This document shows positions 11,682 through 62,924 of a stretch of 64,000 nt of DNA, piece after piece. The notes beneath the pieces are model-generated. The model was not told the DNA's origin. It searched no databases and worked only from the letters and a program-made list of their open reading frames with translations. This DNA comes from Mobula hypostoma (Eukaryota). Each line of letters begins with the position of its first letter. Position 1 is the first letter of the stretch. The translations under genes were made by a program, and so were the position numbers. Where the stretch lies: assembly GCF_963921235.1 (NCBI RefSeq), contig NC_086097.1, forward strand, positions 141,486,001 through 141,550,000. The letters run 5' to 3'.

Positions 11682-12123
11682 ATGTTACCAGTGATTGCTG
11701 CAATCTGCCTTTGGCTTGGCGCACGAGTCTTCGTGCAGGGAGCACTCTGCGAGCCGATTAAGATCCCGATGTGCAAAGCAATGCCCTGGAATATCACGCG
11801 AATGCCCAACCATCTACACCACAGCACCCAGGAGAATGCTATTCTGGCTATAGAGCAGTACGAGGATTTAGCGGACACCAGCTGCAGCCCGGTGCTGCCC
11901 TTCTTCCTCTGTGCGATGTACGCACCCATCTGCACTTTTGAATTCCTGCACGATCCCATCAAACCATGTAAATCCGTTTGCCAGAGTGCAAGAAATGGTT
12001 GCGAGCCTATTTTGAAAAGGTACAACCACAGCTGGCCCGAGAGTCTGGCATGCAGCGACTTACCCGTGTACGACCGAGGGGTCTGCATCGCTCCCGAGGC
12101 AATTGTCACCGATTTATCCGAGG
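11682..12123 (+). CDS. SFRP4: Secreted frizzled-related protein 4, exon 1 (signal peptide + frizzled CRD)
   Basis: [12 protein letters not shown]...[27 protein letters not shown]...[21 protein letters not shown] closely matches SFRP4. Donor G|GTGAGA, 442 nt, phase 1. Confidence 0.97.
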
Positions 12124-38885: not shown

Positions 38886-40454
38886 GATTATCTCCACCTG
38901 CTGATGAGGTTTAGGATAAGTTTGAAACAGATGAGGAAAACCTTTTCATTCAGATGGTCGTGATCTTTGGAATTCTCTCTCTCTCAAAGAACTATAGAAA
39001 CATAATTGTTGAGTTAATCCAAGACAAAGAGTGATAGATTTCTGGATATTGATGGATTAAGGGATACGGGATCATTATCATCATCACTATGTGCCATGTC
39101 AGATGTCATGGGCGATCATGGTCTTTGACCATGATTGTTTTTGGCAAATTTATTGACCAAAGTTGTTTGCCATTGTCTTCTGGGCACTGTCTTGTCAAGA
39201 TAGGTGATCCCAGCTATTATCAATATTCTTCAGAGATTGTCTGCCTGGTGTAAATGATCGCATAACCAGGACTTGTGATATGCACCAGCTGTTTGTACGA
39301 CCATCCATCACCCACTCCCATGGCTTCACATGACCCTGATCGGGGGTGGGGTTGCTAAGCAAGTGCTATATGTTGCCCAAGGATTTGGGGATAGTGCAGC
39401 AAAATAGCACTGAGGTAGGTTATTAGCTCAAAGGCACAAACGCTCTACCCTGATCTTATGTTCTTTTATTCTTCTGCTCAATGACATTCTTGTGGCTGTG
39501 CTTGTAGGCTTGCTAGTCTCTCTGTAACTTCCTGAATAGTCATGAGCATTTTGCAGAAGAGATTTGTCATCTCTGTCATCCAAGATCCACCTATAACTTA
39601 ACATTTTGTGGCATGAAGGAAACTTTGAAAATTGTTACATAGAAAAAAGTTACAAATTCTAAAATAAGTGGATGGTATATTATAAATTAATAAATTGATT
39701 TTTCATCCACAGCCTCCAGCACAATAGGATAATGGCATCTTACGCTACATTATTCAATGATTCCATAGTTTGAAATTAAATCCCAATTGTTCAGGTACAA
39801 TGAGCATGACAATAATTCTCTACTGTAATTAAAATGTGAATGAAATTATCTGAGCATATGATAATGTCAGGAAGCATCAATGGAAGCAGAGGGATGGTCC
39901 GTATTTCAGGTCGAAACCCTGCATCAGTCCTGATGTAGTAGCTCAACCCAAAACATTGACTAAACTCCCCCCCCCCCACCACCACCCACCATCACAGGTG
40001 ATGCCTGACCCACTCAGTTCCTCCAGCAGTTTGTTTCTTCTAAAGAACTGTAACTGCCTTAACAACTTCCTAGTATTGAGACAGAAATTGGAAGCTCATC
40101 ACTAAGTTGGTGTAGACATAAACTTGTGTTCTGTCTTGCCAGAGTCTATCATCATTATGAGACATCACTATGCCCAGAATGGAATATTTGAATTGGAAAG
40201 TAAATCAAAAATGACTAATTCAAAAGCAATATTTATTAAAATTTGCCTGACTCTTCACAATAAAGGTCTTTGGCTGGAACAACAAGACAAGAACAATTCA
40301 ATGAACTATTTATACTTGAGTCATAAAGGTAATAATCAGATTTTTATAGTATTACTAATAAACTGTGGAAATGTTTAGATTTACATTTTTTATGGATTGG
40401 CCAATTTCTTTGAAGGACCATGAATGTTACTTACAACTAATGTAAAATGATATG

Positions 40455-40465
40455 TTTATTTTATT
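40455..40465 (-). promoter_or_regulatory. Overlapping AATAAA signals, candidate polyadenylation site of the NME8-like gene
   Basis: TTTATTTTATT on + strand, ~0.8 kb past the stop of the repeat exon; AT-rich context weakens this. Confidence 0.35.
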
Positions 40466-41282
40466 CTATTTCAATAATTATCTTGCCTCAAGTCTGTTTT
40501 CATACTTCCTGAACCTCGAGATTGCAATTTAGATGCCAGCTTACAAGTTTCAGATAAGTTTAGAAGTCACAAGAAATATTACTATTGGGGTTAATGATAA
40601 TATTAACTACACAGATGGAACCATTTCTATTTTAAGACTTGTAAGCTAGGAAGCTTTGATCTTGGCTACATGAATTAGGAAGTGTCCTCTGCGCCAGCAA
40701 TTATAATCAGCACCAGATTCAATTTGTTAGAAGGGAGCAGTTATGGTAATTGGAAAAACTATATTCAGATGGAAATCTAAATAAAAATAACTGCAGAGGC
40801 TGGAAATCTAAAATAAAAGCAGAAAATTCTGTAAACACTCAACAGTTCAGTCTGGGAGAAATAATGTTTTCTGGCAAAATAACAGTGACAGATCACTTCG
40901 CAGGAGAAGGTACTTCTCAACGGCTTTCATCAAAGAGTTTCATAGAACAGAAGCATTTTAATTGCCAGTATTAGTAATAGGTTTATCTTCAGTTACAACA
41001 TTAATGGGACCAGATGTAGCTTCATTATCATCAACAACAGATACTTCAGTAGGAGCAGGAACACCTTCATTGCTGGCGTCAGCAGATTCAATAGCAGCAG
41101 ATACATCTTCGTGGTCTGCATCAAGGGAATTCAATAGGAGCAGATGTACCTCCCTCATTAGCATCAGAAGCTTCAATTGGAATGGACTTATCTCCACTGA
41201 CAGTATCTGAGGGTATAATAGGAGCAGATTAATCTTCTGTATTGTATTCAGGAGCTTTAGTGAAATATCCTCCGTATTTGCA

Positions 41283-42094
41283 TTAGTTTGTATTTGCTTC
41301 ATTTTGTGTAGACAGGTCTTGAGAATTAGAATCAAAGGCATCTAGGGCTTCACCTTGAGCAGAAAAACTTTCAGTGGTGGAATCAGGGACCTCACTAGGA
41401 GCAGAAATATTTTGGGTACCAGCTTTAGGATCTTCACTAGGGGGAGGTAAGTTTTGAACAGTTGAGTCAGAGGCTTCACCAGGAATGGATACATCTCTTG
41501 TGCTGTCTTTAGGAACAGATATATCTTCTGTGGTGGAATCAGGAGTATTACCAGGAATGTTACTGGCATTAGGGGCTTCACTAGAGACAGACACATCATG
41601 AGTAGTAGAATCAGGGTCTTCAACGAATATGGATACATCTGGGACGTGCAAAGTTGGGACTTCATCAGGAACTATTAATTCTTGGGTACTGGTTTCAGGA
41701 ACTTCAGCAAGAGTAGTTCCATCTGCTGTGCCAGCATCAGGGACTTGAGCAGGAGATGCTACATCTTCTGTGCCAATATCAGGTATTTCAACAGGAGCAG
41801 GTATGTCACTGGTGCTGATAACAGAGTCTTCACCAAGAACATTAACATCTCTTGTATCAGAATCAAGATCTTCAATTGTTGCAGATGCAGTTATGGTGTT
41901 AAAATCAGCAAATTCATCAGGAACAGATATATCTTGGGTCTCAGATGCAATCTTACTATCAGATATGTTTATCTCTTGCTCATCAGTGGGAGCTTCCGTG
42001 TCCACAAATTCAGGAGGTTCAATAGCAGTAGTACTAGGTGCATTTGAAGGGGAATCTGATAGTAAAGCTGTACTGGAAATAGTTAGTCCCTCAT
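41283..42094 (-). CDS. NME8: Putative terminal exon of the NME8-like gene: 270-aa acidic S/T/P-rich 14-aa repeat tail
   Basis: Acceptor TTACTTATAATTACAG|ATGAGG. Phase matches the phase-1 donor at 53395 (G|AT = Asp). 812 nt open frame in non-TE sequence. Linkage inferred. Confidence 0.65.
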
Positions 42095-42325
42095 CTGTAA
42101 TTATAAGTAAACATAACAATTACACTTGGAACTAAAATGACACAGTTGTAATAGTTTATTTAATAATTTCATTTATTTATCATGCAGTGAGCTTCATTGT
42201 ATATCACAAAATACTTGTCTTACTACTTCAAGTTGTTTCTCTTAACTTTCTAACACTTATTTTACTGTAATCAGAATTGAACCTTGTACTTTTGTTTAGT
42301 AGTTGATTTTGAGTTTGAGATTTGA

Positions 42326-45300
42326 GAAACATAGAAACATAGAAAATAGGTGCAGGAGTAGGCCATTCGGCCCTTCGAGCCTGCACCGCCATTTATTATG
42401 ATCATGGCTGATCATCCAACTCAGAACCCAGCCTTCCCTCCATACCCCCTGACCCCTGTAGCCACAAGGGCCATATCTAACTTCCTTTTAAACATAGCTA
42501 ATGAACTGGCCTCAACAGTTTGCTGTGGCAGAGAATTCCACAGATTCACCACTCTCTGTGTGAAGAAGTTTTTCCTAACCTCGGTCCTAAAAGGCTTCCC
42601 CTCTATCCTCAAACTGTGACCCCTCGTTCTAGACCTCCCCAACATCGGGAACAATCTTCCCGCATCTAGCCTGTCCAATCCCTTTAGGATCTTATATGTT
42701 TCAATCAGATCCCCCCTCAATCTTCTAAATTCCAACGAGTACAAGCCCAGTTCATCCAGTCTTTCTTCATATGAAAGACCTGCCATCCCAGGAATCAATC
42801 TGGTGAACCTTCTTTGTACTCCCTCTATGGCAAAGATGTCCTTCCTCAGATTAGGGGACCAAAACTGCACACAATACTCCAGGTGTGGTCTCACCAAGGC
42901 CTTGTACAACTGCAGTAGTACCTCCCTGCTCCTGTACTCGAATCCTCTCGCTATAAATGCCAGCATACCGTTCGCCTTTTTCACCGCCTGCTGTACCTGC
43001 ATGCCCACTTTCAATGACTGGTGTATAATGACACCCAGGTCTCGTTGCACCTCCCCTTTTCCTAATCGGCCACCATTCAGATAATAATCTGTTTTCCTAT
43101 TTTTGCCACCAAAGTGGATAACTTCACATTTATCCACATTAAATTGCATCTGCTATGAGTTTGCCCACTCACCCAACCTATCCAAGTCACCCTGCATCCT
43201 CTTAGCATCCTCCTCACTGCTAACACTGCCACCCAGCTTCGTGTCATCCGCAAACTTGGAGATGCTGCATTTAATTCCCTCATCCAAGTCATTAATATAT
43301 ATTGTAAACAACTGGGGTCCCAGCACTGAGCCTTGCGGTACCCCACTAGTCACCGCCTGCCATTCTGAAAAGGTCCCGTTTATTCCCACTCTTTGCTTCC
43401 TGTCTGCTAACCAATTCTCCACCCACACCAATACCTTACCCCCAATACCGTGTGCTTTAAGTTTGCACACTAATCTCCTGTGTGGGACCTTGTCAAAAGC
43501 CTTTTGAAAATCCAAATATACCACATCCACTGGTTCTCCCCTATCCACTCTACTAGTTACATCCTCAAAAAATTCTATGAGATTCGTCAGACATGATTTT
43601 CCTTTCACAAATCCATGCTGACTTTGTCCGATCATTTCACCGCTTTCCAAATGTGCTGTTATCACATCCTTGATAACTGACTCCAGCAGTTTCCCCACCA
43701 CCGACGTTAGGCTAACCGGCCTATAATTCCCCGGTTTCTCTCTCCCTCCTTTTTTAAAAAGTGGAGTTACATTAGCCACCCTCCAATCCTCAGGAACTAG
43801 TCCAGAATCTAACGAGTTTTGAAAAATTATCACTAATGCATCCACTATTTCTTGGGCCACTTCCTTAAGCACTCTGGGATGCAGACCATCTGGCCCTGGG
43901 GATTTATCTGCCTTCAATCCCTTCAATTTACCTAACACCACTTCCCTACTAACATGTATTTCGCTCAGTTCCTCCATCTCACTGGACCCTCTGTCCCTTA
44001 CTATTTCTGGAAGATTATTTATGTCCTCCTTAGTGAAGACAGAACCAAAGTAATTATTCAATTGGTCTGCCATGTCCTTGCTCCCCATAATCAATTCACC
44101 TGTTTCTGTTTGCAGGGGACCTACATTTGTCTTTATCAGTCTTTTCCTTTTTACATATCTATAAAAGCTTTTACAGTCCGTTTTTATGTTCTCTGCCAGT
44201 TTTCTCTCATAATCTTTTTTCCCCTTCCTAATTAAGCCCTTTGTCCTCCTCTGCTGAACTCTGAATTTCTCCCAGTCCTCAGGTGAGCCACTTTCTCTGG
44301 CTAATTTGTATGCTACTTCTTTGGAATTGATACTATCCCTAATTTCTCTTGTCAGCCACGGGTGCACTACCTTCCTTGATTTATTCTTTTGCCAAACTGG
44401 GATGAACAATTGTTGTAGTTCATCCATGCAACCTTTAAATGCCTGCCATTGCATATCCACCGTCAATCCTTGAAGTGTCATTTGCCAGTCTATCTTAGCT
44501 AATTCACGTCTCATACCTTCAAAGTTACCCCTCTTTAAGTTCAGAACCTTTGTTTCTGAATTAACTACGTCACTCTCCATGTTAATGAAGAATTCCACCA
44601 TATTATGGTCACTCTTACCCAAGGGGCCTCTCACGACAAGATCGCTGATGAACCCTTCCTCATTGCTCAAAACCCAGTCCAGAATAGCCTGCTCTCTAGT
44701 CGGTTCCTCGACATGTTGGTTCAAAAAACCATCCCACATACATTCCAAGAAATCCTCTTCCTCAGCACCTTTACCAATTTGGTTCACCCAGTCTACATGT
44801 AGATTGAAGTCACCCATTATAACTGCTGTTCCTTTATTGCACACATTTCTAATTTCCTGTTTAATACCATCTCCGACCTCACTGCTACTGTTAGGTGGCC
44901 TGTACACAACTCCCACCAGCGTCTTCTGCCCCTTAGTGTTACGCAGCTCTACCCATATCGATTCCACATCTTCCCGGCTTATGTCCTTCCTTTCTATTGC
45001 GTTAATCTCTTTTTTAACCAGCAATGCCACCCCACCTCCCCTTCCTTCATGTCTATCCCTCCTGAATATTGAATATCCCTGAACGTTGAGCTCCCATCCC
45101 TGGTCACCCTGGAGCCATGTCTCTGTGATCCCAACTATATCATAATCATTAATAACAATCTGCACTTTCAATTCATCCACCTTATTACGAATGCTCCTTG
45201 CATTGACACATAAAGCCTTCAGGCGCTCTTTTACAACTCTCTTAGCCCTTTTTAATGCTTGCCCTGGATTTGTCGGCCTGCCACTTTTATTTTTCCCCTT

Positions 45301-45921
45301 TGTACTTTTTGCTTCTACGCTCACTTTACACCCCTCTGTCTCTCTGCACTGGTTCCCATCCCTCTGTTGTGAACTAACCTCCTCACACCTAGCCACTTTA
45401 ATTTGATTCCCACCCCCCAACCATTCTAGTTTAAAGTCACCTCAGTAGCCCCCGCTAATCTCCCTGCCAGGATATTGGTCCCCCTAGGATTTAAGTGTAA
45501 CCCGTCCTTTTTGTACAGGTCACACCTGCGCCAAAAGAGGTCCCAATGATCCAAAAACTTGAATCCCTGCCCCCTGCTCCAATCCCTCAGCCACGCATTT
45601 ATCCTCCACCTCATCGCATTCCTACTCTCACTGTCGCGTGGCACAGGCAGTAATCCCGAGATTACTACCTTTGCGGTCCTTTTTCTCAACTCCCTTCCTA
45701 GCTCCCTATATTCTTCTTTCAGGACCTCATCCCTTTTCCTACCTATGTCATTGGTACCTATATGTACCAGGACCTCTGGCTCTTCACCCTCCCACTTCAG
45801 GATATCTTGGACACGATCAGAAATATCCCGGACCCTGGCACCAGGGAGGCAAACTACCATCCGAGTCTCTGGACTGCGTCCACAGAATCGCCTATCTGAC
45901 CCCCTTACTATCGAGTCCCCT
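42326..45921 (-). mobile_element. Young CR1 LINE: ORF1 SGNH esterase part + essentially complete ORF2 (APE endonuclease + RT)
   Basis: ORF1 GDSIVRG, GTND, DGLH. ORF2 NARS, ITETW, YRPP, GDFN, SDH, QGSVLGP, FADD. Only lesion seen in ORF2 is one in-frame TAG at 43153-43155. CATAGAAA tail repeat. Confidence 0.95.
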
Positions 45922-46019
45922 TTTCTACCCCTTTTTATGTGCAAGTCACATATAAATGTATTTTGTACATATTTTGAAGTGTTCGTACCTATTTCTGCCA
46001 TGTTTCATCTGTAATAGAA

Positions 46020-48178
46020 TATAACAAATTATTGTCCTTGAAGATTATGGAATTGAAAAACTTAGTGACTTAATCAATGGCATTTATGAGACTGGAATAA
46101 TACCAGAAGAGATGAAAAAATCAGTATTCATCACTCTTCCTAAGAAACTTGGAGCAATAGAATGTGAATTACATAGGACCATAAGTTTAAAACCATATAA
46201 CCATATAACAATTACAGCACAGAAACAGGCCATCTCGGCCCTTCTAGTCTGTGTCGAACTCTTACTCTCACTTAGTCCCACCAACCTGCATTCAGCCCAT
46301 AACCCTCCATTCCTTTCCTGTCCATATAGCTGTCCAGTTTAACTTTAAACAACAACGTCGAACCTGCCTCAACCACTTCTGCTGGAAGCTCGTTCCACAC
46401 AGCTACCACTCTCTGAGTAAAAAAGTTCGGCCTCATGTTACCCATAAACTTTTGCCCTTTAACTCTCAACTCATGTCCTCTTGTTTCAATCTCCCCCACT
46501 CTCAATGGAAAAAGCTTATCCATGTCAACTCTGTCTATTTCCCTCATAATTTTAAATACCTCTATCACGTCCCCTCTCAACCTTCTACATTCCAAAGAAT
46601 AAAGACCCAACTTGTTCAACCTTTCTCTGTAACTTAGGTGATGAAATCCAGGTAACATTCTAGTAAATCTTCTCTGTACTCTCTCCATTTTGCTGACATC
46701 CTTCCTATAATTTGGTGACCAAAACTGTACACAATACTCCAAACTTGGCCTCACCAATGCCTTGTACAATTTTAACATTACATCCCAACACCTATACTCA
46801 ATGCTCTGATTTATAAAGGCGAGCAAACCAAAAGCTTTCTTCACCAACCTATCCACATGAGATTCCACCTTCAGTGAACTATGTACCAATATTCCTAGAT
46901 CCCTCTGTTCTACTGCATTCTTCAAAGAGTCATATCACCAAGATTCTTCTAAGAATTTTGATGATGAGCTAAAAGTAAGATACAAGCTGAAATAGGTAAA
47001 GAACAATGTGATTTTGTGAAAGACAAAGGTACAAGAAACGCAATATTGATGTTAAGGATACAATCAGAACGAGCTATTCAAGTGCAAAAAGATTTGTTTG
47101 TTTTATTGACTACACAAAAGCATTTGATAAAGTGAAGCACAATAAATTGTTTGAAATATTACAGAAAACTCTAGATCTAGATTTGAAAGACCTCCGCCTA
47201 ATCAGAAATCTGTACTGGGAACAAACTGCTGCTATAACAATAGATGGAGAAGTGAGTCAGTTTACGAAAATCAAGAGAGGCATTAGACAAGGGTATGTTT
47301 TCTCCCCTGATATACTTAATGTGTACAGTGAAATAATATTACAAAAAATAAGAGACATCTTGGGAATCAAAGTTGGCAGTGAAAACAACAATAATTTCAG
47401 ATATGCAGATGACACTGCAAGTACGCAGTGCAAGTACGGAGGAAGAACTACAAAACTTAATTGATGTAGTTGTTGAAGAAAGTGCAAAAATGGGTCTATC
47501 TATCAATTGCAAAAAGACAGAATGTATGGTGATATCAAAAAAGGAGAAACCTATCTGCAGGCTGAGAATAAATGGGGAAGATATAAAACAAGTACAGAAC
47601 TTTTGCTACTTAGGAAGCTGGGTGAGATCAGATGGCAGGTGCGACATGGACATCAAAAGAAGAATAGGGATGGCAAAGACACCTTTACAAGATTGAAGAG
47701 CATACTGACCAATACTAAACTAGGCATGACGACCCACCTCAGAGTACTGAAATGTTACGTTTATCCAGTTATGTTATATAGCTCAGAATGTTGGACAATA
47801 TCTTGTAATATGAGGAAAGGAATTCAAGCAGCAGAGATGTGGCTTTTGAAGAGGATGCAAAGAATATTATGGATGAAATGAATATCTAACGAGGACGTCA
47901 TGAACAGAGCAAACACAAAAAGAGAAATAATGTTGAGATCATGAAAAGGCAACGTAACTTCATTGGACATGTGATTAGGAAAGAGGAGTTAGAATGCACT
48001 GTAATTATGGGAAAGATTGAAGGGATGAAAGCAAGAGGAAGACAAAGACAAATGATGATGGAGACAGCAGCCAGAGAACTGGAAATAAATACCAATGAAT
48101 TGATCCACTTGACCCGAAACAGGAGTGTGTGGGCCATAGCAGTCAAAGCTCAAACTGGGCATGGCACCTGATGATGAT
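46020..48178 (+). mobile_element. RTE-clade LINE, 5'-truncated, interrupted by a CR1
   Basis: SVFITLPKK..AIECELHRTISL, GIRQGYVFSP, RYADD, FCYLGS motifs; (TGA)n tail at ~48170. Confidence 0.85.
46191..46925 (-). mobile_element. CR1 3' fragment inserted in the RTE element
   Basis: Open ORF 46272..46925 (LEYCVQFWSP); AACCATAT tail repeat; RTE reading resumes after 46925. Confidence 0.9.
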
Positions 48179-48429
48179 TCATCTATAAGGAAGATGGACT
48201 GTACACTTTTACATTATAAGTGTTTTGTTGCTGTCAAAGGTTGCAGTATTTTGTGCATGAGGTGTTGTGATCTGTGACACTGACTGCCTGTTACCTGATA
48301 GAGCTGCTCTATATGGAGATCCCCAGGACATTGTGTGCATTTTAATTTCTATTTAAATCTAAGTCATGGTTTGCAAATTAATCACACTATATGGTTGTAC
48401 TATAAAGGAGATGGTATTTTGTATTTAAG

Positions 48430-48640
48430 CTGGTGGCGTAGTGGCATCAGCGCCGGACTTTGGAGTGAAGGCTCCCGAGTTCGAATCCAGTCCGCTCCCT
48501 TGCACGCTTTCCATCTGTGCTGGGTTGAGCGTTGAGCTAGCAACTCAGCCTCGTAAAATAAGAAAGCCTGCTAAAAAAAAAACGCCATCGTGACAGTGTC
48601 ACAATGACTCCACTCGGAGTTAAGGGCTTTCTTCTTCTTC
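48430..48640 (+). mobile_element. tRNA-derived SINE, full length
   Basis: A box TGGCGTAGTGG, B box GTTCGAATCC, (CTT)n tail, 14-bp TSD ATTTTGTATTTAAG at 48416-48429 and 48641-48654. Confidence 0.9.
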
Positions 48641-48849
48641 ATTTTGTATTTAAGGGCAATGTAATAACTGCAAAATGTAAGTATTTTGAAGGAACCGTTT
48701 CAGAAGATGATTCCAATATGGATGTTTGTTTTATGTTGTATTATCCATGCATTAATGATGTAAAAAGATACCAGAAATACTGTCTGGTTCGGAAATTGCA
48801 CCATCTTGGATCGCAAGGCCCTGCAGTGGATTCATCGGGGTCTCTCTTC

Positions 48850-49316
48850 CTGCCATTACAGACATTTACACCACATGCTGCATCCGTAAAGCAAACAGCA
48901 TTACGAAGGACCCCACGCACCCCTCATATAAACTCTTCTCCCTCCTGCCATCTGGCAAAAGGCACCGAAGCATTTGGGTTCTCACGACCAGACTATGTAA
49001 CAGTTTCTTCCCCCAAGCCATCAGACTCCTCAATACCCAGAGCCTGGACTGACACCAACCTACTGCCCTCTACTGTGCCTATTGTCTTGTTTATTACTTA
49101 CTGTAATGCCTACACTATTTTGTGCACTTTATGCAGCCCTGGGTAGGTCTGTAGTCTAGAGTAGTTTTTGTGTTGTTTTACGTAGTTCAGTATAGTTTTT
49201 GTATTGTTCATGTAGCAACATGGTCCTGAAAAATGTTGTCTCGTTTTTACTGTGTACTGTACCAGCAGTTATGGTCAAAATGACAATAAAAAATGAATTG
49301 AATTGACTTGACTTGA
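48850..49316 (+). mobile_element. Rex1/Babar-like LINE 3' fragment
   Basis: RKANSITKDPTHPSYKLFSLLPSGKRHRS reading; (GACTT)n tail. Confidence 0.72.
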
Positions 49317-49932
49317 AATATTATAACCCATAGAAATAGGGTAGCAGCCAATTCCTTCCATATATACCTTTAAAATATTTTGAGTTTCCTTGTCTTCTTT
49401 GAGTCTTTCTGTAATCTGTGGTCCAATCTTTTTGGTTTCCTTTGTGAATGCCTATGGTACAACAGCTGTGTACTTCCTGGGTTTACATTGTTAATGCACC
49501 CAGGATAAGTTAGAAGTAAGTCAGCTTGAAGAAATTAATAATTTCTATAAATATTTTGGGACAAGTGTATCATTTTTACTATGTATAAATTCTACAGATG
49601 GCCTCTCATGGGATTACCCCCATAACCCTTATCCACTATACTGTTTAACAGTTAAGAAAAATAGCATGATCTTTAGGGAACGTCGCTATCTACCTCCCAT
49701 CAGTTTTAACATACCTTCCAAGACGCTCTTCTTTCTGAACCGGAAAAAAATTCTCATCTATGTTGTCACTGATCCTTTCAATCCATGTCCTGAACTTTAC
49801 AAATCACACTTTTATATAGGCTCTTTGGAAATCAATGTAGTTTTGATTATCTGCAGAATGGCCTTAAGCCTTGAACATCTGAATACAGTACTAACTCAGG
49901 AGCATGAAAGGTGACCGGTACACCAACTTACA

Positions 49933-50479
49933 CACTGAGTGGCTATTTTATTAGGTACACCTATACACCTGCTTATTAATGCAAATCTCTAATCGGCCAA
50001 TCATGTGACAGCAACAATGCATAAAAGCATGCAGATATGGTCATGTGGTTCAGTTGTTGATGAAATCAAACAACAAAATGGGGAAGATGTCATCTAAGAG
50101 ACTTTGACTGTGGAATGATTATTAGTACCAGAAAAGGTGGTTTGTGTATCTCAGAAACTGCTGATCTCCTAGGATTTCATGCACAGCCGCCTGTAGAGTT
50201 TAAAGAGAATGGTGTGAAAAACCAAAAAAACATCCAGTGGCCGGCTATTCTGTGGGTGAAAATACCTTGTTAATAAGAAGGGTCAGAACAGAATGGCCAG
50301 ACTGGTTGAAGGAGACAGGAAGGCTGGAGTAAATCAAATAACCACGCGTTACAACATTGGGCATGTAGAGGAGCATCTCTGAATGCAGAAACCATGAAGT
50401 GGATGGGCTACAGCAGCTGAAAACCAAGACATACTGTATACACAGTTATGGAGGTACCTAATAAAATGGACACTGAGTG
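49933..50479 (+). mobile_element. Second copy of the non-autonomous Tc1-like element
   Basis: Colinear with 33738-34286; TIRs CACTGAGTGGCTATTTTATTAGGTAC / GTACCTAATAAAATGGACACTGAGTG followed by TA. Confidence 0.83.
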
Positions 50480-52419
50480 TATGTCTTATGGATATCTCTG
50501 ACAGATAACTGGAAAAACGTGTAACATCAGTTTGGGTGCAGTGCAGGCATGCATTTGTCATGTTGCTGCTGCTCTCCCAGTTAAAAGCACTGGAAGCTGT
50601 TGACTCATACACACCAGTTGCTGCCTGAGCTCTCAACTGTAGTTTCATTCACACATTGCCCACTGGGAAGAATGTCAGCACTAATAAAATGAACTCTCCA
50701 CATACAGTGCCATGAAATGAGAGAAAATTTGGAATTAGGGATGGGTAGTAAGTAAGAAAGAGGAATAAATAGAGAGGAAGAAAGGAAATGGACAAAAATA
50801 AAATGCAAAGGGGAGGAAGGGGGATAAACTGTAGAAAGGTATTTAAAGAGTGAGGGGGGAAATTACAATATGGAGTAGCCCTATCAAGCCTCATGCCATG
50901 AACATTCTGTTGCCAATTAAATCATCAGGGTCCCAGATCACAACATCCTGTGCACAAATGATGCAACCGTAAACAGTGCTGTATCCATGCAGAAGGAAAC
51001 CACCCAAAGGTCATTGTGAGAGAGGCAGAAGCAATACCCCAGCAGAAACCTTTAATTCTTCTATGGGTCTGGACTTGTTGCGTGATTTACTCTTTGAGCA
51101 AATAACAAAGGTCCTGGTTTGTGATGAGAAATTACACCAGTGTTTGGGTGAATCATGTTAAAAAGTGTCCAATCCAACTCTCTGTTGGATAAGACCTGCT
51201 AATCTTCCACAATCTCAAAATCATGAAATTCCTCTTTCAGTAATCACTGATGCCACATAAAAATTCAAAGAAGGTTTCACTTCAAGATCTAAGGAGTCAG
51301 TGGAAGTAGGTGAATGTTTATGTCTGTGTGGTGCATCCCACGGATGTGAGGATGATAATTAAATGCTCACTCAGCAGCAGTTTGAAGCATATTAGTTATT
51401 TCCATTGAGGGTCTTGTTACCACTTCCTTACAAATCCTTGTCCAGTTTTGGTCTCTGCACAAGGAAGTTAATTACAAAGCTTCCAGATGATGGGGAAGAC
51501 AGACAGCATCTACATTGCGATGAGCAATAAGCTAGGTGGACCAAAGTTTTGCATTGTGCACATGAGGCTGGTAGGTTGAGTTGTACAGTCATAATGCAGA
51601 GTCATTAAGTATAGTACCTTCCTTTACATAAATACACTGTGATGAATTCAGTATCAGATTTCACTATAAGATGATACAGTATATTGCTGTATATAATTTA
51701 GATGACAATTTGCCATTACAGAATCCACAAATCATTACAGATATGGATTGAAGATTTGATGTTACACAATTTATGTCAGAAAATAGTACTGAGCTAAACA
51801 CAAATTTTAAAAAAAGACAACTCTTGTCAATATTTTCCAGGGTGTAATGTTATGGAAAATATTATGGTTTTCTAGTAATACAACCTCCCTGTAATGTGAG
51901 AGGTGTAATGTAGTTCTGTCGCCCATAACTAGAAAGTAAGTGAACTTCTCTGTATTATCTTGGCTGTCTTGCTAAAGTCATTAAACTTCTGAAAATCTAT
52001 TAATGCCATCTTAAGGATGAGGGAGCTGGCATTCAGTAATGATGATGCTTCAATTGTGTTGCTATATTCTTGTTTGCTTTATTTTTAATAGGTTAGGCAG
52101 TACCCACAATCTCCCACCTCTTCTTTCCATCTCCACCTGGAATAGGGCTCTAATCTTCATTTGAATGAAGGCTTGCCTAGCTGCCTTCTGCATACAGGAA
52201 ATGCTTGAGAGGTCTCAGGTTTATAAAGGGTCACAGTCATGTGCAGGTGTTTAAGTATGACTGTATCTGGAGAAGCACATTAAGTGCACACATACTACAT
52301 ATGTTAACATTTACATGTGTGCATTGATTACTGGTGGAGATGGAGGAGCCCATACACCCCTGCCCTACCTTATGCACATCTTTATAAGACATCTGATCTT
52401 TTTACTTGTTTGTGGAGCC

Positions 52420-53045
52420 TTAGTAGCATTGATGTACTGAGGGATCTTGGGCTGCAAGCCCACAGCTCCCTGAAAGTGGTGACACATGTAGGTAGCATGC
52501 TGAAGAAGGCATATGGCATCCTTGATTCCATCACTTAGAGTGTTGAGTATAAAAGTCGAGAAATTGCAGGTGTATAAATCTTTGGTTACACCATGTTTAA
52601 AATATTATGTGCAGTTTTGATTACCACATTACAAGAAGAATGTAAAGGAGTTGGAGGTCATGCTAAAGAGGTTCACCAGGATGTTGTCTGGATTAGTGAG
52701 TATCAGCTATAAGGAGAGATTGAACAAACTTGGATAGTTTTCTCTGGAACACTGAAAAATGGAGGATGACCTAAAAGGAGTATTTAAGGTATGAGGCCGA
52801 AGGTTTAAAGGAGATTTATGTGGCAGATTTTTTAGAGAGTGGTTGGTGTTTGGAATATCAGCAAAGTGGTGGAAGCAGATACTTTGGTAACATTTAAGAG
52901 GTAATTACAGGCATATGAACAGGCAGGGAATGGAGAGGTAAGGATCTCACGCAGGAAGATGGGGATAATTCGATTGCATTATGGTTGACACAGACAAGGT
53001 GGGCTCAAGGGCCTGTTCCTGTGCTGTATTGTTCTATATGCTATG
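52420..53045 (+). mobile_element. Degraded CR1 3' fragment
   Basis: RDLGLQAHSSLKV..., CR1-type 3' end GGGCCTGTTCCTGTGCTGTATTGTTCTA. Confidence 0.7.
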
Positions 53046-53394
53046 CAGTGGGTAACAAAGCTTCTTGAATTTTCTGCCCGGCAAAATAATAAAGACTGGA
53101 TTATTAACAATATTTAAAGTGAAAATAGATAAATATTTGAAAGACTGATAAGTTAAGAGTTATGGGGAGCTGGCACAGAAGTGGAGTTGAGACCAACACA
53201 GATCATCCATGGTCATATTGAATGGTGAGGTAGATTTGAGAGTCATGGTAGCCTATTTTCTAGTATAAATGTTGGCAAATGTATGAAACTAATTACGTAC
53301 AGAGCTTGATAAATGTTACCACACTGCTTTATAGATGAACATAAATATGCAAACACTACACTGCATTTGGAAATTGGAATCATAATAAAATTAC

Positions 53395-53633
53395 CTAGGA
53401 CAACACCAAATGAATCTAGAAGTGCATCTCCAAAGAATTTCTTAATGTAGTCCTTAGCATGTTTTGCATTGGAGGTGGTGTGAAGCCCATTTTTTAATAT
53501 ACTAGAGTCAAGCTGAGCCCGAAGGGAATTTGGAAAAGATGTTTTTGCCAGCTGAAGATCTGCAGGTCCCATCAATTCCTTCCATTCCTTAACAGCATTC
53601 TCCTTGGTAAGAATTATAGCCATTAATGGACTC
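53395..53633 (-). CDS. NME8: NME8-like exon: second half of the last NDK domain
   Basis: GTTTTAG|GAGTCC, SPLMAIILTKENAVKEWKELMGPADLQLAKTSFPNSLRAQLDSSILKNGLHTTSNAKHAKDYIKKFFGD, donor G|GTAATT, 239 nt. Resembles the NME8 third NDK domain; NME8 is tail-to-tail with SFRP4 in human. Confidence 0.88.
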
Positions 53634-56594: not shown

Positions 56595-56739
56595 TGAGAC
56601 ACATTTTCAATTAATTGATTGAAGAATGGCTCTTCTTCATAATCCTTGTAGAACTCTGCTGCCATCTCCTGGGACATCACAACGGATTTAATTGCAGAGA
56701 TTATAAAGCTTCCTTCATGGATCTTGGCTATAATAATAT
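56595..56739 (-). CDS. NME8: NME8-like exon: first half of the last NDK domain (absent from the ORF track)
   Basis: CTAG|AT, hand translation IIIAKIHEGSFIISAIKSVVMSQEMAAEFYKDYEEEPFFNQLIENVS, donor CA|GTAAGT, 145 nt, joins in frame (CA|G) to the 53633 exon. Upstream exons presumably lie beyond the window. Confidence 0.88.
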
Positions 56740-59490: not shown

Positions 59491-61402
59491 CTGTCAATCG
59501 AGATCCCACTGCAATTCTTGATACTCCTCTTCATTGCCTGCAACACTACCTATTTTAGTGTTATCAACAAACTTGCTAAGTATTTCTCGTATAGCCTCAT
59601 ACAAATCATTAATATAGATGACAAATAGCAATGGGCCCTGCACTGATCCCTGGGGCACACCACAAGTCAAAGACGTCCAGTTAAGAAATATCCTTTCACC
59701 ATCATCCACTGCTTCCTATCATCCAGCTAGTTTTGTATCCAGTTTTCTAGCTTTCCTTGGATGCCATGTGATCTAACCTTTCAGAGCAGCCCATTATGAG
59801 GAACCTTATCAAAAGCCTTACTACAATCTATATATGCTATATCTACTGCCGTCTCCTCATCAGTTTTCCTTGTCATTTCATCAAAATATTCAAACAAATT
59901 TGTAAGACAAAATCTCCTATGTATAAAGCCAGACTAATCAAACCCTGTCTTTCTAAATGTTAATATATCTTATCTCTCAGAATGCTTTCCAAAACCTTAC
60001 CCCCATGGATGCAGGCTAATGGTTCTATCATTAATTGGTCTATCTTTATAGTCCTTCTTAAGTAAAGGCACATTTGTGATCCAGCAGTCTTCCAGAACTC
60101 CACTAGAGGACGTTGATGCAAATATCTCAACAAGAGTTCCCACAATTTCTTCTCTAGCTTCCCGGACTGTTCTTAGATATGCCTCACTGGGACTTGGAGA
60201 TTTGTCTATATTCATACATCTAATCAAATGCAACACCTCTTTTACTATCATGTGGACTGCTCCCAAAACATCTCTATTAACTTTACCAGATTCCCAGGTC
60301 TTCATATCTTTCTCTGTAGTAAAAACAGAGAAGAAATAATCATTGAGAACTCTATTCATCTCCAGCATCCCACACATATGTTTCCGTCTTGGTGTTTAAG
60401 GGGCTCTATTCTCTCCCTACTCATTTTTCGCCTTATAATATTTCTTAGAATTCTTCTTTATTTTCTCTGCCAAAGCTTTTTCATGCCCTTCTTTCACAAG
60501 TATACTTCAGAGTCCTCTATATACCTCCAGTGGTTCAATTGATCCCAGCTAGCTGTACCTGGCCCAAGCCTCCTTCTTTTTCTTGACCAGTTACAATATT
60601 GCTTGGATTCCAGTATTTCTAACTCACAGCAGCTTTGACTTTTATTTTAACAGGAATATGTAGACCTTTAACTCTTGCTATCTCACCTTAAAAAAACTCC
60701 ACTTGCCATAGGCCCCTTTACCCACAACCAACCAAGCCTTATCAACCTTTGCAAGCAACTGTCTAACACTGTCAAGATTGACTTGCTCCAATACCTAACT
60801 CAAACTTGCAGGCCAGTTCTGCCCCCTTACAGAGCTATTTTAAAACTAATGTAACAATAGTCACTGGTCCCAAAGTGCTCCCCTACCATGTCATCAGTCA
60901 ACTTCCTCTTCCTTATTTCCCAGGATTATATCAAATTTTGTCCCCTTCTCTGGTAGGGTCTTTTATAATGGCTTGAGAAAACTTTTGTCATGGTCCGGAT
61001 CGGGGTCCCTTTAAATTTACCTTGTTTATGTTACGATCCAGACCGTTGATTCCCTGCTTTCCCGTGTCCCTCGACTTTGGTGATTAGAGGCAATTAACAC
61101 TCGGCTGAACCGGTAGTTTATAGTCTCCGGCTTTCAGCCGTTCGGTGCGAGAGCATCTGCAAGGTCACCAAGGTACGCCGTGCCGATGTCATCTGACTGG
61201 AGCAAGCCTAGTCTCCGCCCGAAGCGAGTGCCGGTAATTCGCCTTTCCTTACTGGAGCAACCCTGTCAAGCTACCCCGCTAAAGCAAGCCTGCAAAGTTT
61301 CCTCACTGAGGTGGGTCCATCAGTTAATCCGCTGGAGGGAATCAAGAACCGCTGTCTACTGTTCCCGGGCCGAGGCGAGAGCTTGCCACTACTCAGAGGC
61401 TC

Positions 61403-61705
61403 CAAGTCAAGTCCTGGCTCCGGCGGCATTCTAACACCAAGTCAAGTCCTGGCCCTGGCAGCATTCTAGCACCGTCAAGTCCTGGCCCTGGCGGCATTCT
61501 AGCACCAAGTCAAGTCTAGGCCCTGGCGGCATTCTAGCACCAAGTCAAGTCCTGGCCCTGGTGGCATTCTAGCACCAATTCAAGTCCTTTCCCTGGTGGC
61601 ATTCAAGCACCAAGTCAAGTCCTGGCCCTGGCGGCATTCAAGCACCAAGTCAAGTCCTGTCCCTGGTGGCTTCCCAGTTCTGAGTCAAGTCCTGGCCCTG
61701 GCGGT
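61403..61705. repeat. 35-bp minisatellite, ~8.5 copies
   Basis: Unit CAAGTCAAGTCCTGGCCCTGGCGGCATTCTAGCAC. Confidence 0.93.
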
Positions 61706-61849
61706 CTGTGATTCCTGTCCTACCCCCTTGTCTGAATCCCTTCTCTGCCCCTTTCGCCTCTAGCCCTCGTCTGCAGCCCCCGCCTGCACTTCAGTCCAGT
61801 TCCATCGCCGGAGCTAGATAGGTACTGTCTGGTGTTCATTCGTGTTGGT

Positions 61850-62255
61850 CTTGTCTTGTCTTGTCTTGTCCTGGCCTCCGTGGGGTAAGTCAGGCCGTCT
61901 TGCCGTTGCTCCATGGGGGGTCATGTCTTGTCTTGTCTGGTCCTCGCCTCTGTGGGGGTAAGTCTGGCCGTCTTGCTGTTACTCCGCAGGGGGTCATGTT
62001 TTGTCTTGTCTGGCCCTTGCCTCCATGGGGGTAAGTCTGGCCGTCTTGCCATTGCCCCGCGGGGAGTCATGTCTTGTCCTGTCCTGGCCTCCGTGGGGTA
62101 AGTCAGGCCGTCTTGCCGTTGCCCCGCGGAGGGTCATGAGTCCCGACCCTATGTCCAGTACCCAAGGAGGGGTCCCGGCTCTCTGTTCTGTGTGTGAGTC
62201 CCGGCCCTATGTCCTGTACCCAAGGAGGGGTCCCAACTCTGTGTTCTGTGTATGT
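61850..62255. repeat. ~68-70-bp tandem repeat (4 copies) followed by a ~58-bp repeat (2 copies)
   Basis: Units GTCTTGTCCTGGCCTCCGTGGGGTAAGTCAGGCCGTCTTGCC... and GAGTCCCG.CCCTATGTCC.GTACCCAAGGAGGGGTCCC... Confidence 0.88.
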
Positions 62256-62924
62256 GTCCATGGTTCCATGTACCTGCTCTCCCGAGATTGAGGCTCAGTA
62301 TTCTCATGTTCCTCCTCTCCCTAGCCCATGTCATGTCCATGCCTGGTTCTGGGGTCCGAGCCTGAGGCAAGACCCAAGTACTGGGTCCTTGCCCAGTCTC
62401 GGGCTCGGAGTCCATACCCTAGCCTCTTCATGCCTCCTCTAGTTCTGGGAGCCGATTCTGAGTCCTAGCCCAGACCCTTGGTCCCAGCCTAGTCGTAGTC
62501 CTCAGTCCTTGTCCAGTTCGCTACTCCTGCTCCTGCCTAGCTCTCCTGATATCAAACAATAAACTAAATTTAATTAACCTCACAAGATGAGTCTTGCATT
62601 TGGGTCCACCCTTGCTCCCAATGCCCCCGCCATTGTGATAACTTTACTTAATACACTGAATAAATTACACCTATTATAGATCTTTAACACTATGGCAGCC
62701 AATGTTAGGAAAGGTAAAATCTCCAACAAAGACAGCCCTACCATTTTCACAATCTTCCCTTTGCCCAGTGAATTTCTTCCTTTTATTCCACCAAAAAGTA
62801 TGATTACCTCACAAAGGTAATCATCCCTTTCCTATTTATCCGTTCCACACATAAAGCCTCATCAGATGATCTTTCAATAGTGTCATCTCTAACTTCTGCT
62901 ATGATGTTCCTCTTAATCATAAAG

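Follow-up and report, generated by a model that had tools for sequence, protein, structure and literature searches.

The acidic repeat tail of a ray NME8 gene: a likely charged spacer on a sperm-flagellum protein, with a probable new intron

We find that the NME8 gene of Mobula hypostoma ends in a coding region for an acidic tail of ~270 amino acids (aa), which is likely to be a charged spacer on a sperm-flagellum protein, and that 147 bases inside this region are likely a new intron. Our window is the whole 64,000-nucleotide stretch of M. hypostoma DNA that was analyzed, and all positions refer to it (Table 1). The original prediction, made from the same letters, had given an NME8-like gene a 270-aa acidic repeat tail ending at 41283. 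The acidic repeat tail stands but that end is probably wrong, as the repeat array extends beyond 41283 to ~40940 and the stop is skipped in Hypanus and in two of the sequencing runs compared here (X19 and X20). The tail is already present in automatic annotations (NCBI/UniRef) and so is not new as sequence; our search of the literature on NME8 and NME9, which covered papers other than subscription ones, found no paper on the elasmobranch NME8 tail.

Table 1. Features of the NME8 locus and its neighbor in the window.
Feature	Coordinates	Strand	Remarks
SFRP3/4-type gene, first exon	11682..12123	(+)	Tail to tail with NME8; Pfam Fz E 1.6e-30
3′ UTR	40232..40939	(-)	AATAAA at 40465 and 40237
Former C-terminal repeats, out of frame	40940..41120	(-)	Presumably 3′ UTR now in Mobula hypostoma
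Tail exon, second part	41121..41206	(-)	28 codons to TGA at 41123-41121
Likely GT..AG intron	41207..41353	(-)	147 nt; decayed repeat units; stops at 41285-41283 and 41231-41229
Tail exon, first part	41354..42094	(-)	~246 codons: a brief non-repeated linker followed by degenerate acidic repeats of 14 aa (42 nt)
NDK core-to-tail intron	42095..53394	(-)	11,300 nt; LINE fragments abundant
NME8 coding exon, end of last NDK domain	53395..53633	(-)	Phase-1 GT donor follows
NME8 coding exon, first part of last NDK domain	56595..56739	(-)	145 nt; incoming phase 1, outgoing phase 2

Gene structure and the junction to the tail

Two exons in the window encode the last NDK domain. The upstream one is bounded by AG and GT sites, is 98% identical to residues 211-259 of the Hypanus protein P0003, and gives an open frame when joined. 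The downstream one (53633-53395) matches Pfam NDK with an E value of 2.8e-10, is 95% identical to the Hypanus sabinus model, and ends in TAG/GTAATT, which confirms the phase-1 GT donor that had been claimed at 53395. By this 95% match, the DNA of the window reads as that of a ray. The acceptor that the original prediction placed 11.3 kb downstream is likewise present at 42095/42094, and the NDK and tail exons joined there form an open frame. The same junction occurs in the database models of Hypanus, Leucoraja, Heptranchias, Pristiophorus, Scyliorhinus, Pristis, and Rhincodon.

We compared positions 40300-42400 with three RNA-type runs from other organisms (X9, X19, and X20; the RNA label is a guess) and with one DNA run (X5). 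X19 and X20, which come from two studies and two organisms and are ~92% identical to the window, each have a single 3.5-kb contig that joins at 42096. Upstream of this point, 1,927 (X19) and 1,869 (X20) contig letters fall outside the compared stretch, and such a length of ~1.9 kb is enough for the whole thioredoxin-NDK core. The two contig letters beyond 42094 match the end of the NDK exon. On the intron side of the acceptor, positions 42146-42287 have no RNA-type cover in X9, X19, or X20, while the DNA run X5 continues. On this sequence comparison, the exon at 42094 is a real part of NME8; the 53395-42094 junction itself is taken from the database models. Read-through to the stop at 53243, which had been set against splicing, was rejected as the main form: the stop exists, but the resulting peptide has no counterpart in the homologous models examined, which splice instead.

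A nearly intact LINE ORF2, which we take to be of CR1 type, lies at 45441-42424 (-), with 762 codons, one stop, and a further 243 codons. It ends ~300 nt upstream of the tail-exon acceptor.

Properties of the repeat tail

The first part of the tail exon is 87% identical to Hypanus over 246 aa and matches Pristis at 173 of 246 residues; the X19 contig covers it with 0 gap letters and the X20 contig with 12. The frame at 42092-41286 encodes 269 aa, of which 21% are D or E and 5 are K or R, with a net charge of -52. Its identity to itself at a lag of 14 residues is 0.22, a value reached by none of 2000 composition shuffles (maximum 0.168 at any lag), and the peptides quoted in support of a ~14-aa period all lie in this frame. 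At the DNA level, periodicity peaks at 42, 84, and 126 nt; Tandem Repeats Finder reports just 2.5 copies. The periodicity of the tail is thus genuine but degenerate.

The tail is predicted to be disordered, in keeping with the original prediction. In the AlphaFold model of the Pristis protein, the chain is folded up to about residue 555, after which pLDDT is mostly below 50 and secondary structure is absent, and a charge-hydropathy plot puts each of the ten tails tested on its disordered side. We rejected the idea that the array belongs to a repeat family or to another gene, as it has a single copy in the window, no Pfam match, and only Atlas look-alikes at or below 0.78. A search of the tail against 1.84 billion representatives returned seven hits, the best three of which are NME8 of elasmobranchs, that is, the same gene; the other four are unrelated low-complexity proteins.

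Substitutions are about as frequent in the tail exon as in the UTR (7.8% versus 8.1% in X19; 8.1% versus 7.4% in X20). Frameshifting indels differ, with 0 in the tail exon versus 3 (X20) and 2 to 4 (X19) in the UTR. Note that this contrast is modest, with P(0) of 0.019 for X20 and 0.003 for X19 if its events number 4 (a count of 2 would weaken it), and that X19 and X20 are non-independent. K and R together number 0 to 11 in tails of 305 to 636 aa, and remain close to zero from species to species, as they do in two unrelated repeat units. Because tail substitutions are as fast as those of the UTR, frameshifts are absent, and K/R counts are near zero, selection on charge and openness fits these data. 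Selection may therefore keep the frame, negative charge, and disorder of the tail, and not its sequence or length.

Distribution of the tail among species

The tail is present in seven of the nine elasmobranch models that we retrieved, and its top period is 14 or 28 in all seven. The other two models are cut short: that of Chiloscyllium retains 69 tail residues, and that of Mobula birostris stops short of the last NDK domains, its early end lying in unrelated sequence. Tailed automatic models include XP_059843321.1 (Hypanus), XP_051879444.1 (Pristis), XP_055489444.1 (Leucoraja), XP_067838013.1 (Heptranchias), and XP_038666330.1 (Scyliorhinus). These elasmobranch "TXNDC3 homolog" or "TXNDC6-like" models represent the same gene, with the same junction and the same 14-aa acidic array as the window. 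Next to these arrays, that of the window is shorter and also more degenerate, with an identity at lag 14 of 0.22 versus 0.77-0.78 in two sharks; it has an interrupted 147-nt segment and an early stop. Database names here can mislead: ray NME8 models are called "TXNDC6-like" yet fall in the NME8 clade, and a whale-shark NME8 fragment is named "skin secretory protein xP2-like."

Beyond elasmobranchs, chimaera NME8 has a 393-aa acidic tail with a period of 8. The 11 bony-vertebrate NME8 members in our tree have 0 to 9 residues past the last NDK domain, and two waterfowl models outside the tree have 30; mammalian NME8 also has a short end after this domain. Lamprey, the NME9 clade, and invertebrates have acidic tails that start from the same aligned position. 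Tail periods elsewhere in the family are 8, 10, 12, 20, 32, and 34 among proteins of at least 658 aa, the only ones surveyed; the homologues were the best 120 of 311 hits, so that tail frequencies are biased. Separate repeat expansions are seen in carp (period 34), salmonids (12), coelacanth (32), tree frog (20), octopus (10), and skate NME9 (19).

The original prediction had left open whether the tail was retained from an ancestor or expanded in this lineage. From the sequences compared, the acidic tail at the post-NDK position appears ancestral, and the 14-aa array appears to be an elasmobranch-wide expansion that is eroding in stingray-type rays. An expansion in M. hypostoma alone was rejected, since sharks have longer and more uniform arrays. 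The 15-aa repeats of the sperm thioredoxin TXNDC2 (SPTRX-1), which had been brought up as a parallel, were not found in print in the literature that we searched.

A likely intron within the array

The 147-nt segment is skipped in the X19 and X20 contigs (41353-41207), which align at 42096-41354, then at 41206-40889, and on into the UTR; the same residues are missing from the Hypanus model. GT..AG ends are expected for 0.4% of arbitrary deletions in the array (1200 of 288,145). In a ranking with a rough matrix, the donor of the skip is first among 50 GT sites; its acceptor ties for first place among 72 AG sites on pyrimidine content, and none of the others at the top has CAG. The array has another five GT-GA sites with G or A just before them, in weaker context. 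We consider it very probable that the segment is a true intron in at least some rays, and the stop at 41283 probably lies within it.

The segment derives from the array itself. Its DNA matches the array's own units with a score of 64, which none of 500 shuffles and none of 426 other pieces of the window attained. Residues 266-311 of the Pristis tail match its read-through over 47 residues at 53% identity (E 3.5e-10; next hit E 0.049), and the Leucoraja model is open across the region with a weaker match; for both species, coding status comes from automatic protein models. With 147 nt here versus 141 nt in sawfish, the segment is homologous to the array and contains no foreign insertion. Comparison of protein with DNA indicates that, relative to sawfish, the window has a net six extra bases through two frameshifting indels and has gained stops. 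An origin by recent duplication was rejected, as the orthologous position exists in sawfish. Because sawfish codes 47 residues exactly there, the intron was likely born from formerly coding repeats in stingray-type rays. The residue before the donor is His in sawfish and Gln in the window and Hypanus; the Gln codon, which places an A at donor position -2, may have helped to switch the donor on.

The third RNA-type run is different: the skip is seen in two of the three and the segment is kept in X9, which comes from the closest relative (~99% identical to the window). Its contigs 40792-41286 and 41278-41565 cross both 147-nt ends at a depth of 6 to 12, so the lineage of the window may itself keep the segment, and no spliced contig is among those listed for X9, whose cover is patchy (depth 5-15; absent, and uninformative, at 41862-42003). 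It is on these contigs that a single uninterrupted terminal exon would rest, with a 269-aa tail running to 41283 and the segment possibly an intron in other rays. Such an exon would also accord with the extra base near 41133, which limits the downstream frame to 28 codons, as would be natural for sequence that is no longer translated, and with the five residues that separate the spliced and retained products, a difference that would leave little selection for splicing. We nevertheless find it rather unlikely, given that the donor and the acceptor which the window keeps exactly at the ends of the skip rank first and among the top, respectively, in the array, and that patchy X9 cover could stem from pre-mRNA or DNA, with contigs dropping rare forms. 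We lean toward the segment being mainly spliced in M. hypostoma. A genomic deletion in the lineage of Hypanus, X19, and X20, with a decaying segment kept in that of the window, seems very improbable. Repeat arrays do contract often, with about half of fixed indel residues coming from tandem repeats (PMC12457776), and the X19 and X20 contigs do share a 37-nt skip that is not a splice; however, chance would rarely give a deletion GT..AG ends, let alone top-ranked ones, and the flanks share 2 letters only, with no repeat-register homology.

Introns are reportedly known to have arisen from human tandem arrays, according to a report of 2007. Intronization as a mechanism is reviewed in PMC3443670 and treated in PMC12457776, and among 342 human intron gains it accounts for 3 cases, 1 of them with detectable similarity to the ancestral exon, in the survey of PMC12124190. 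The cases of CYP21A2, RPGR, and HELZ2 described there resemble the ray case in being coding in the outgroup, in having a length divisible by three, and in retaining detectable similarity (E 5e-10 for CYP21A2 versus 3.5e-10 for ray NME8). Unlike them, ray NME8 has its intron inside a coding tandem array with a latent donor, in a cartilaginous fish, and maybe with the segment retained in one lineage. The mechanism is thus known, but going by these texts it has rarely been shown this clearly in vertebrates, where clear intronizations are rare; for ray NME8, the outgroup is coding, there is a change that could plausibly have activated the splice, and a sister lineage may still retain the segment.

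The 3′ end of the gene

The TGA that would end the spliced tail results from a single base near 41133 that X19, X20, and Hypanus lack. This base is common to M. hypostoma and organism B. The tail is 274 aa if the segment is spliced and 269 aa if the 147 nt are kept. Downstream of the segment, sawfish reads IEFPDA and the window stops after IEFP, while Hypanus reads through, its frame restored by a second indel; this suggests a compensating frameshift pair (41135-41121) in the lineages that splice (Hypanus, X19, and X20). In the shifted frame, 40940-41120 matches Hypanus residues 610-657 at 44 of 48 positions and Leucoraja residues 1039-1103 at 36 of 66, and it ends where the skate stop sits. 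UTR contigs extend to 40366, to 40335, and to the edge at 40300. Because they run beyond 40465, the AATAAA at 40237 is the likelier signal. At 40852-40888, 37 nt present in the window and in organism B are missing from X19 and X20, without splice ends; this difference is probably a genomic indel in the 3′ UTR.

History of NME8 and NME9

Our careful tree of 22 rows has two jawed-vertebrate clades, A (100/99) and B (100/98). Clade A contains the tailed chondrichthyan genes together with gar, sturgeon, and sauropsid TXNDC3 (Gallus, Emydura, and Zootoca); clade B contains the second chondrichthyan gene, coelacanth, lungfish, frog, the second gar gene, and a teleost. The rows were hand-picked from 207 listed proteins and include no mammalian NME8; a quick tree of 48 rows was also used. 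The window gene is placed through its orthologues (95-98% for Hypanus), whose grouping with amniote TXNDC3, gar, and sturgeon bears out its description as NME8-like. Full-length orthologues have three NDK matches, and those of Pristis, Heptranchias, and Callorhinchus carry WCGPC, the motif of the N-terminal thioredoxin domain, whose exons in M. hypostoma fall outside the window.

Forcing both chondrichthyan paralogues together was rejected (p-AU 0.0017). Human TXNDC6 scores 415 bits against the shark and 414 against the gar gene of clade B, versus 199 (shark), 297 (gar), 261 (turtle), and 252 (chicken) in clade A. Faster evolution of clade A would lower these scores too; yet human TXNDC6 has a complete first NDK domain, which is weakened in clade A. 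The trees place the split of NME8 and NME9 before jawed vertebrates. By comparison, NME9 is presented as a eutherian duplicate of NME8 in PMC2777172, which notes that its own tree disagrees, and a 2026 review repeats an origin by incomplete duplication (PMC13256974). As far as these texts present it, the published history looks wrong, in which case fish and frog "nme8" studies probably concern NME9, as NCBI names already hint.

Sharks, rays, chimaera, and gar have both NME8 and NME9. All 6 teleost and 4 frog rows of the quick tree fall in the NME9 clade, and teleosts and frogs may have lost NME8. Chondrichthyan NME8 has a stem some eight times as long as that of chondrichthyan NME9 (0.71 versus 0.089), which suggests a change of role together with tail expansion. 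Amniote NME8 (TXNDC3/SPTRX-2) resembles the window gene in its clade, in its thioredoxin, weakened first NDK, and two full NDK domains, and probably in its SFRP3/4-type neighbor (on 7p14 in human). Sea-urchin IC1 (Heliocidaris, P0065) and the NME9/TXNDC6 clade share with ray NME8 a thioredoxin domain, three NDK domains, and an acidic low-complexity tail with the same aligned start, but their three NDK domains are full, and their tails are Glu/Ala-rich without a 14-aa period. IC1 is a pre-duplication co-orthologue of both vertebrate genes.

Proposed origin and function of the tail

We propose that an ancestor of NME8 and NME9 had an acidic tail exon and was duplicated before jawed vertebrates. 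In NME8, the tail would have been lost in bony vertebrates and expanded in elasmobranchs by tandem duplication of 42 nt (and of an 8-aa unit in chimaera). Each repeat unit would bear a latent G/GTGAAG donor. Once sawfish had diverged, the change of a His codon to Gln would have put an A at donor position -2, and a pyrimidine-rich CAG would have formed ~3.5 units downstream of the donor. The segment would then have been spliced out in frame, later gaining two indels and stops. The tail itself would serve as a flexible charged spacer, with selection acting on its frame, negative charge, and disorder.

The catalytic His of active NDP kinases lies in a motif of the H-G-S-D type. In the last NDK domain of the window the His is kept and the motif reads HTTS, with HSSS in sharks and sawfish. 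Human NME8 and NME9 show no detectable NDPK activity, according to PMC13256974. This altered motif and the lack of enzyme activity in human NME8 together make a scaffold role likelier. In the mouse, NME8 is specific to the testis and is found in the fibrous sheath, and animals without Nme8 are fertile (PMC11457495). Cartilaginous fish are the first group to show column-like structures at doublets 3 and 8 (PMC11276731), and elasmobranch sperm has two helical accessory columns (PMC11856307). The fibrous-sheath location in mouse and the columns of elasmobranchs lead us to favor a charged spacer in or beside the columns over an outer-arm role. The likeliest site would be the sperm principal piece, in or beside the accessory columns, a placement that we offer tentatively; there the tail would be a candidate component of the elasmobranch sperm columns. 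To the further idea of an intron caught mid-birth, spliced in some lineages and retained in others, which shortens a polyanionic NME8 tail whose role is to space or build these helical columns, found in shark and ray sperm alone, we give little credence.

Two other readings of the tail deserve weight. It could work at the outer dynein arm, where its charge would tune the contacts between motor and microtubule, as is thought for sea-urchin IC1, whose acidic C-terminal region, mentioned in the original prediction, is indeed a tail of 207 aa, of which 29% are Glu. PMC8754002 lists NME8, alias DNAI8, among the dynein intermediate chains and as an orthologue of sea-urchin IC1. This role is conceivable but is not the one that we expect: the only thioredoxin-NDK chain found in solved structures is TXNDC6, of the other clade, which like IC1 has three full NDK domains and short branches, whereas the chondrichthyan NME8 stem is long. 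The tail could also be tolerated filler, made of slippage-driven repeats that drift in length and have no role. A substitution rate equal to that of the UTR, lengths of 270 to 640 aa, the eroding C-terminal part in rays, and the tailless NME8 of bony vertebrates would all suit such filler. We regard it as unlikely, since seven elasmobranchs, and chimaera with a different unit, keep the frame open, with D+E at 20-34% and K/R nearly absent, and since acidic tails whose periods are unrelated turn up repeatedly in the family, albeit in a length-biased sample. A charged spacer remains our preferred reading.

Neighboring features

The top Atlas cluster for the exon at 11682..12123 is "SFRP 3/4" (0.96) and its best PDB hit is sFRP-3, a result that does not separate SFRP4 from SFRP3. 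Presumably this gene is SFRP4, the neighbor of human NME8. Tandem arrays of 35, 38/73, and 58 nt occupy a GC-richer stretch at 61402-62259, which is probably part of a retroelement. Two open frames lie at 4683-4159 (-), with 175 codons, and at 1894-860 (-), with 345 codons; we take the former to resemble a transposon-associated DNA-binding protein and the latter to be an RNase H-bearing LINE end.
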